12,728 nt of DNA from a virus (taxonomy: Duplodnaviria; Heunggongvirae; Uroviricota; Caudoviricetes). Positions within the stretch are counted from its first letter, which is position 1, and the number at the start of each line of letters is the position of its first letter. The notes beneath the pieces were generated by a model. That model had not been told where the DNA came from. It did no database searches and worked only from the letters and a program-made list of their open reading frames with translations. Positions 1,089 through 2,035 of the stretch are shown one piece after another. The position numbers and the translations under genes are program-made. The stretch lies in IMG/VR virus record IMGVR_UViG_2585427793_000006, positions 1-12,728 of that record; one strand, written 5' to 3'.

Positions 1089-1120
1089 ATGACGATCGAT
1101 ACCATCATATCGATCGTCGT
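1089..1120. promoter_or_regulatory. Perfect 11-bp inverted repeat (GACGATCGATA, 6-nt loop, TATCGATCGTC) carrying two GATC Dam sites, upstream of com. Candidate Dam/OxyR-type control region of the mom promoter and/or terminator of the upstream fibre fragment
   Basis: Read directly: arms at 1091-1101 and 1108-1118, GATC at 1094-1097 and 1112-1115, followed by GTTTTA. Mu Pmom is known to be controlled through upstream GATC sites (Dam methylation blocking OxyR binding). Confidence 0.45.
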
Positions 1121-1191
1121 TTTACATCATGTGTGGTTAAATATCCCCAGCCCTCCGGGTGGTCGTATCTGGTTATTACACAGGGGGAATC

Positions 1192-1377
1192 ATGGACTCT
1201 GTTCGCTGTAAAAACTGCAATAAGTTACTGTTTAAAGGAGGTTTTAAGCATATAGAAATTAAATGCCCTCGCTGTAAACGTTACATTGTCATATCGAATG
1301 CCAAAGAGCATCCCACGGAGCTGTATTGTGGGAAAAGAGAAGAAATCACGCATTCTGACAAAACCCTGCGTTATTGA
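1192..1377 (+). CDS. com: Com, zinc-finger translational activator of mom
   Basis: 61-aa product [61 protein letters not shown] with CxxC...CxxC at residues 6/9 and 26/29, recognisably Mu Com-like. A G-rich Shine-Dalgarno (GGGGGA) lies just upstream. The GTG at 1159 proposed by the ORF track lacks an RBS and is probably not the start. Confidence 0.9.
1311..1333 (+). promoter_or_regulatory. Predicted mRNA hairpin (TCCCAC, 11-nt loop, GTGGGA) with the candidate mom GTG start in the 3' arm and GGAG in the loop. Candidate Com-controlled translation initiation region
   Basis: Inverted repeat read from sequence. It is consistent with the known Mu mechanism in which Com binds mom mRNA and opens a structure sequestering the mom initiation region. 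Confidence 0.4.
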
Positions 1378-2035
1378 GTATGAAGGCCGGATTGTCGGAT
1401 ATGGTTCAAAGGAGTTGCGCGTTGAAACCATATCCTGCTGGCTGGCCCGCACAATCATTCAGACAAAGCATTATTCCCGCCGTTTTGTGAATAACTCCTA
1501 CCTGCATCTGGGCGTATTCAGCGGACGTGATCTGGTTGGCGTTTTTCAGTGGGGATATGCCCTTAATCCCAACTCAGGGCGTCGTGTCGTGCTTGAAACA
1601 GATAACCGGGGTTACATGGAACTGAACCGCATGTGGTTACACGACGACATGCCCCGCAATTCTGAATCACGGGCCATCAGCTACGCGCTGAAAACCATCA
1701 GGTTACTGTATCCGTCAGTGGAGTGGGTTCAGTCCTTTGCAGACGAACGCTGCGGGCGTGCTGGCGTGGTATATCAGGCGTCGAATTTTGATTTTATTGG
1801 TAGCCATGAAAGCACATTCTACGAACTGGACGGCGAGTGGTATCACGAGATAGCGATGAACGCGATTAAGCGCGGAGGTCAACGAGGCGAGTATTTGCGG
1901 GCTAATAAGGAACGGGCAGTGGTACACAAATTTAATCAATATCGCTACATCAGGTTCCTGAACAAGCGCGCAAGAAAGCGCCTAAACACCAAACTATTCA
2001 GGGTTCAGCCATATCCTAAAAACACTCCAGATTAG
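1328..2035 (+). CDS. mom: Mom, DNA modification protein (adenine N6 acetamido-type modification, anti-restriction)
   Basis: Strong recognisable similarity to phage Mu Mom across the ORF (e.g. ...[39 protein letters not shown]...[18 protein letters not shown]...). It overlaps the 3' end of com in another frame, as in Mu. The start is uncertain: GTG 1328 has GGAG 7 nt upstream, with ATG 1298 and TTG 1286 as alternatives. Stop is TAG 2033-2035. Confidence 0.88.

Follow-up and report, generated by a model that had tools for sequence, protein, structure and literature searches.

com and mom at the right end of a Mu-like prophage joined to an interrupted phiP27-like prophage

The com-mom DNA-modification genes lie in their canonical position, closing the gene order of a Mu-like transposable prophage at its right end. 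The window that we analyzed is a 12,728-nucleotide stretch of viral DNA (IMG/VR record IMGVR_UViG_2585427793_000006, positions 1 to 12,728). We hold with high confidence that positions 1-2116 are the right arm and terminus of the Mu-like prophage, and that the sequence from 2117 onward belongs to a separate phiP27-like prophage whose tail-terminator gene was split by transposition. The two prophages meet at 2116/2117 in a transposition joint. The original prediction had correctly recognized com and an overlapping mom gene, and had also rightly noted that all genes lie on one strand, next to a decayed tail-fibre locus. It had, however, placed the pair outside the canonical Mu context, wedged before the Mu-like tail operon of a single phage. 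Instead, the cassette sits 81 bp from a terminus at 2116 in the same layout as in Mu, and the tail operon beyond it is that of the phiP27-like prophage.

Right arm and terminus of the Mu-like prophage

The window opens in the 3' end of a tail-fibre gene of the Mu-like prophage (1-47, + strand), which is cut by the window start; in Escherichia coli E300082 (NZ_CM128602) the corresponding 'phage tail protein' CDS ends at position 20045 of locus L001, equivalent to window position 45. It is followed by a tail-fibre assembly chaperone (tfa; 48-593, + strand), which matched PF02413 Caudo_TAP (E 3e-23) and is 36% identical to Mu U, and by a 156-aa stub of a second tail-fibre gene (580-1050, + strand), of which only the N-terminal domain remains (PF08400, E 7e-25). 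The stub, the decayed locus noted above, occupies the slot held in Mu by the invertible G segment and gin. It is annotated by PGAP as a pseudogene missing its C-terminus in both E300082 and 23CRST050, while in other relatives the slot holds a full-length fibre gene of at least 1.4 kb plus a DUF4376 chaperone.

The identity of this arm was established by its counterpart in E300082. Positions 1-2119 of the window are 99.7% identical to E300082 by megablast, in which the window splits at ~2117, and the counterpart forms the right arm of a Mu-like prophage that is complete at 34 kb and divides mhpA into two halves. The order of genes in that arm is fibre, tfa, fibre stub, com and mom, and past mom come the same 81 bp, with the split host gene next. 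The E300082 prophage encodes a CI-type repressor, Ner-like, Gam and Mor proteins, a gpT head protein and a Mu-type tail, as well as a Mu-type transposase (PF09299, PF02316) and a MuB-type ATPase (PF09077), the last two being found in the relative and outside the window. A 159-aa protein adjacent to Mor in this prophage matched no Pfam or NCBIfam model, and no homologue of the C activator was identified there.

The position of the terminus was defined by comparing insertion sites. The sequence after mom, ...GGTATCAAATGATTTTGCGCGCTTTA, is common to the window, E300082, FDAARGOS_943 (where the element is inserted in sslE) and six more insertion sites on IMG/VR viral contigs (L015/L017, L019, L020, L022, L026 and L043). 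Since the shared terminus ...GCGCGCTTTA abuts at least nine different flanks, the window included, the element ends at 2116, 81 bp past the mom stop. This right end (attR; 2036-2116, + strand) is associated with three GTATCAAA repeats, at 2034-2042, 2069-2077 and 2091-2099, and three inverted TTTGATAC repeats are found at the left end of the E300082 prophage; by inference, these terminal repeats are likely transposase sites. A defined terminus, unrelated flanks and short target repeats were all found, as in the right end of a Mu-like transposable phage.

The junction and the interrupted phiP27-like prophage

Directly beyond the terminus are the bases TGCT (2117-2120, not assigned to a strand). 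They are predicted to form the right-hand copy of the target duplication, whose left copy would lie outside the window. The empty site, GGCACCC-TGCT-GGATCTG, is found in phiP27 and in E. coli AST215. The interrupted gene encodes a tail terminator: its 3' fragment, codons 119-187 (2117-2325, + strand), is 99% identical to residues 119-187 of phiP27 L43 by tblastn, and L43 matched PF23840 Phage_tail_terminator in Pfam. AST215 carries the whole 564-bp gene, uninterrupted and 100% identical in nucleotide sequence, and window positions 2117-4400 are 100% identical to that genome. In both AST215 and E200086, the 100%-identical region with its intact gene lies inside a prophage with an HK97 head and a P27 terminase. 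E300082 also carries an intact P27-like prophage on another contig, with the Mu-like phage inserted in mhpA instead.

The fragment is followed by the tail module of the phiP27-like prophage (2335-12123, + strand), which encodes a DUF2635 protein, sheath, tube, assembly protein, tape measure, DNA-circularisation protein and homologues of the baseplate proteins gp44, gp45, gp46, gp47 and gp48. These genes were assigned by Pfam on the source contig, and gp48 was confirmed. From its start inside L43, the segment 2117-11733 is collinear with phiP27 28982-38628 at 95.8% nucleotide identity over ~9.6 kb. The collinearity is interrupted at 6158-6546, where the tape-measure gene (4765-6678) nears its 3' end, and in AST215 an additional hypothetical gene of 483 bp separates the tape-measure and DNA-circularisation genes.

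Homology to phiP27 stops at ~11733, and the window ends in a tail-fibre module of the P27-like prophage (11780-12728, + strand) that shares 97% identity with the Mu-like prophage's own fibre region. By blastn, this module, comprising the C-terminal extension of gp48/YmfQ and the next gene, matched E300082 locus L001 17507-18455 at 97% and also matched 23CRST050. In the 319-aa gp48/YmfQ ORF (11164-12123), PF10076 covers residues 13-187 only and the tail contains loosely repeated PLxIN-like motifs; the gene is 585 bp in FDAARGOS_943, and the AST215 copy is a PGAP pseudogene missing its C-terminus. The presence of this fibre module as a direct repeat in both prophages probably explains the breaks in draft contigs, and the shared repeat could mediate deletions.

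Together, these observations are best explained by a Mu-like phage that transposed into the tail-terminator gene of a phiP27-like prophage, in the same orientation as the late operon of that prophage. The rest of the Mu-like prophage presumably lies upstream in the source genome, where the left joint is predicted ~34 kb away, with codons 1-118 and ...GGCACCCTGCT followed by the left end 5'-TATRRAGAGGTAAATYATTTGATAC. With its tail-terminator gene split, the P27-like prophage is probably unable to make tails.

An unlikely alternative is that only a right-end remnant is left, the rest of the Mu-like prophage having been deleted after insertion so that com-mom is an orphan beside the P27-like prophage. 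The window does begin inside the fibre region, with the upstream sequence out of view, and the 97%-identical direct repeat offers a possible route to such a deletion; however, the visible arm matches that of a complete prophage at 99.7% identity with its ORFs intact, and the source contig stops at the start of the fibre repeat, as expected of an assembly break. Far less probable is the reading of com-mom as a self-contained moron inserted in one phage, whether Mu-like or P27-like, with the tail-fibre genes on one side and the tail operon on the other. The common strand, the missing gin and the occurrence of a near-identical com-mom segment in lineages with different transposases and ends would all suit a moron, but the flanks are two different elements that are found separately in other genomes, the break coincides exactly with a transposon terminus that recurs in at least nine independent junctions, and what follows downstream is a truncated tail-terminator gene, not the start of an operon. 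Nor does the cassette look like an independent unit, as a terminator scan found none after mom and the G+C profile has no island-like break around 1089-2035. Least credible of all is an assembly chimera in which a repeat caused the two prophages to be joined: prophage repeats do occur and the sequence comes from a short draft contig, yet the junction itself has no shared repeat, the join is at the exact terminus of the element, and 7 contigs carry the same junction protein, three independent run assemblies among them.

The preferred reading, transposition of a Mu-like phage into a phiP27-like prophage, is strengthened by the recovery of the junction in NCBI assembly GCA_000700465.1, on contig JNMS01000055.1, and in 3 Logan run assemblies, which shows that it is not a one-off assembly artefact. 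Homologous recombination between the tail genes of the two prophages was considered and rejected, with the break located at the element terminus and the sheath proteins only 36% identical. More generally, in prophage-rich regions, adjacent phage modules on the same strand may belong to two phages.

com, mom and the control of mom translation

We confirmed that com and mom are real and intact. com (1192-1377, + strand) encodes a 61-aa zinc-ribbon translational activator of mom, which matched PF10122 Zn_ribbon_Com in Pfam (E 2.5e-7, 30.5 bits; cut-off 22.9). It is identical to Mu Com at 45 of 62 positions (73%), with the four zinc-binding cysteines, arranged as two CxxC pairs, aligned. mom overlaps com on the same strand (1328-2035, with a GTG start) and encodes a 235-aa member of the GNAT-fold Mom family, a tRNA(Gly)-dependent adenine N6 aminoacyltransferase, which matched the whole of Pfam profile PF25680 Mom (positions 1-202 of 202; E 3e-75, 252.7 bits) and PDB chain 8bv8_A, 'Methylcarbamoylase mom' (E 5e-155). 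The alignment to Mu Mom is gapless, with 225 of 231 residues identical (97%), and runs without gaps through the helix-turn-helix-like insertion (~175-209). Neither protein matched an NCBIfam model. In RefSeq, Com and close variants of Mom carry the names 'Com family DNA-binding transcriptional regulator', 'Mom family adenine methylcarbamoylation protein' and 'tRNA(Gly)-dependent adenine aminoacyltransferase Mom'. The cassette is thus already known and annotated, being the textbook anti-restriction operon of Mu in its textbook position.

The residues on which Mom activity depends are conserved as well. Mutagenesis showed that R111, S124, D149 and R151 are needed, as are W48, H58, Y59, Y159 and W181 (Silva et al. 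2026, PMC13219725), and all nine are present in the window Mom when it is numbered from an in-frame ATG at 1298. This ATG is an alternative mom start that yields a protein 10 residues longer than the GTG form; it was used in the 2026 structural paper and was called both by PGAP and by the gene caller of the source contig.

Upstream of com we delimited a regulatory region (1051-1191, + strand) that contains a palindrome, two GATC (Dam) sites and an AATAnCCCC box. The palindrome (1091-1118) is perfect, with an 11-nt inverted repeat, GACGATCGATA/TATCGATCGTC, and bears both GATC sites. Across 11 diverse com-mom loci, Mu included, these two sites are invariant or nearly so, while a third GATC found in Mu and most other loci is lost in the window. 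A scan for sigma-70 promoters found none of the constitutive type on the + strand upstream of com, which fits an activator-dependent com promoter, a type for which such a scan is uninformative. Several 40-aa ORFs (1089-1211, 1133-1255) overlap the regulatory region; they are without support and most likely spurious. The start of the cassette had been placed at 1089, which is the ATG of one of these ORFs, whereas com starts at 1192.

The RNA that controls mom translation (1298-1332, + strand) was predicted to fold into two hairpins, following the model for Mu (PMC6483171). In the predicted fold, the first hairpin, AUGC-CAAAGA-GCAU (1298-1311), carries the Com motif CC(N)3GAG, here CCAAAGAG, at 1301-1308, and the second (1312-1332) contains the Shine-Dalgarno sequence GGAG (1317-1320) and buries the GUG start at 1328-1330. 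The stem of the second hairpin, CCCACGG...UUGUGGG, has the same sequence as in Mu, where a Com-binding hairpin with a CC(N)2-3GAG hexaloop adjoins the hairpin that hides the mom GUG start (PMC6483171). Compared with shuffled sequences, the fold gave z = -0.88, which is not significant by itself; therefore, the argument for a control element rests on its conservation with the characterized element of Mu. A search with Tandem Repeats Finder returned nothing relevant.

Given the near-identity to Mu, com and mom would be transcribed late in lytic growth from an activator-dependent promoter lying downstream of a region controlled by Dam at GATC sites. Com would then bind the CC(N)3GAG hairpin and open the adjacent one, freeing the Shine-Dalgarno sequence and GUG start of mom. 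By the same analogy, Mom would transfer glycine from Gly-tRNA(Gly) to the N6 of adenine in double-stranded DNA, and the glycyl group would rearrange to give 6-NcmdA, shielding the packaged phage DNA from host restriction enzymes. The modification 6-NcmdA, made by tRNA(Gly)-dependent Mom, blocks many restriction enzymes (PMC13219725); a model involving acetyl-CoA and iron was an earlier proposal for Mom (PMC7261163). By its resemblance to Mu, the window cassette is presumably expressed and active in modification, and the anti-restriction role originally proposed for it appears correct.

Mom loci, transposition lineage and comparison with known systems

To place the locus in context, we surveyed 49 Mom loci from IMG/VR and from species-representative genomes; the scan of one genome per species alone had given only 4 Mom loci, too few for a survey of context, and IMG/VR was scanned for this reason. 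About 20 of the 49 have the Mu layout, with U, inverted U', gin, com and mom. Another ~20 have tfa, a second PF08400 fibre in direct orientation, either full-length or truncated, and then com and mom, without gin, and in several loci com-mom directly follows tfa. The window belongs to the second of these layouts, with its second fibre cut to the 156-aa stub, an allele also present in 23CRST050 and several IMG/VR contigs. com precedes mom in 48 of the 49 loci, the exception having a truncated mom. Wherever upstream genes could be recognized, com-mom follows the tail-fibre/gin region, and most loci with downstream sequence have a recognizable end 60-130 bp past the mom stop.

Several loci in the survey showed other arrangements. 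In four IMG/VR loci (L029, L033, L039 and L058), mom is followed by further sequence with no recognizable end, and in all of these except L039 an ORF with a signal-peptide-like start (MKK.KLLIS...) follows mom; such an ORF may represent additional cargo lying past mom but before the right end. Locus L021 (IMGVR_UViG_2690316161_000025, 4776-16702) contains two U-U'-gin-com-mom arms 8.1 kb apart, which may be arranged in tandem or may reflect an assembly concatemer.

The absence of an invertase, as originally noted, was borne out: Mu Gin gave no tblastn match in the window or in the arm of the E300082 prophage. The second fibre remnant is in direct, not inverted, orientation, and the features of a Gin/G-segment switch were not found. 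The absence of gin is real but common, being shared by about half of the 49 related loci. The original prediction had considered that the locus might simply be an unrearranged Mu right end with gin just beyond the window; it is essentially such a right end, but gin is truly absent from the lineage and not just outside the window.

Several features set the window lineage apart from Mu itself. First, the termini of window-type elements are 5'-TATRRAGAGG...GCGCGCTTTA-3', that is, TA...TA. Second, paired insertions of these elements are flanked by perfect 4-bp direct repeats in 4 of 4 cases (GGCA, TGTT, GTGC and GTCG). A 5-bp duplication was tried and rejected, as 2 of the 4 insertions would then each show a mismatch, at one and the same position, whereas 4 bp fits them all. 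Third, MuA and the E300082-type transposase share only ~25% identity over 410 aa. By comparison, in the Mu-type control 23CRST050 the end is TG...CA (...GCGCCGCTTCA), the repeat is 5 bp long (TTAGG) and the transposase shares 93% identity with MuA. The features of Muvirus sensu stricto, namely TG...CA ends, a 5-bp duplication and a near-MuA transposase, are thus not those of the window lineage. Because its elements have TA...TA ends and 4-bp repeats, against TG...CA and 5 bp in Mu, the transposition mechanism is Mu-like rather than Mu-identical.

Despite unrelated right ends and transposases, 23CRST050 matches window positions 513-2019, which cover the fibre stub, com and mom, at 98.4% nucleotide identity, demonstrating that this late region is common to lineages with different transposition modules. 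Several tail proteins of 23CRST050 also have the same RefSeq accession as in E300082. The sharing of the com-mom late region across such lineages is ordinary mosaicism within Mu-like phages. Similarity between 23CRST050 and the window breaks just past the mom stop. The right end and transposition module appear to have been swapped as a co-adapted set. Mobility between phage backbones, as originally suggested, therefore holds in part: the 513-2019 segment occurs in two Mu-like lineages, one with a transposase 25% identical to MuA and the other with one 93% identical, but the cassette stays at the right end and does not hop to unrelated backbones. The designation as a self-contained moron did not stand, there being no terminator after mom, no deviating G+C and two different elements as flanks.

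We tentatively suggest, with rather less than even confidence, that the window lineage is an undescribed variant of the Mu transposition system; in a search of the literature that was not exhaustive, we found no description of Mu-like E. coli prophages with 4-bp duplications or TA ends. If this were true, the transposition module (A, B and both ends) would be exchanged as a co-adapted set, and such phages could land in and inactivate other resident prophages. The non-canonical ends are a modest lead for research on transposition in the Mu family.

Set against known systems, the window most resembles Mu, D108 and SfMu, with which it shares the overlap of the gene pair, the GUG start in a conserved hairpin, the Com-binding motif, upstream GATC sites, and com-mom as the last operon before the right end. 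In Mu the mom stop at 36602 is 115 bp from the genome end at 36717, compared to 81 bp in the window. Mu differs in having gin and the invertible G segment upstream, where the window has tfa and a truncated second fibre, and in having three upstream GATC sites rather than two. The window promoter region before 1202 could not be aligned to Mu by megablast, and the end sequence also differs. Among closer relatives, E300082 has the same fibre stub, com, mom and terminus but is inserted in mhpA rather than in a tail-terminator gene, while the FDAARGOS_943 relative, inserted in sslE, unlike the window keeps a full second fibre and chaperone. Downstream, the Stx2e phage phiP27 (AJ298298) is collinear with the window over 2117-11733, with L43 split at codon 119 by the Mu-like insertion in the window; beyond ~11733, the phiP27 fibre region is replaced in the window by the module common to the Mu-like prophage. 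Finally, a right-end anti-restriction slot is also filled in the Mu-like prophages FluMu and Pnme1, which like the window encode DNA modification; there, a non-specific Dam-like methyltransferase takes the place of mom, with no Mom-encoding gene (PMC3299994), and the window differs from both in carrying the classical com-mom pair rather than such a methyltransferase.
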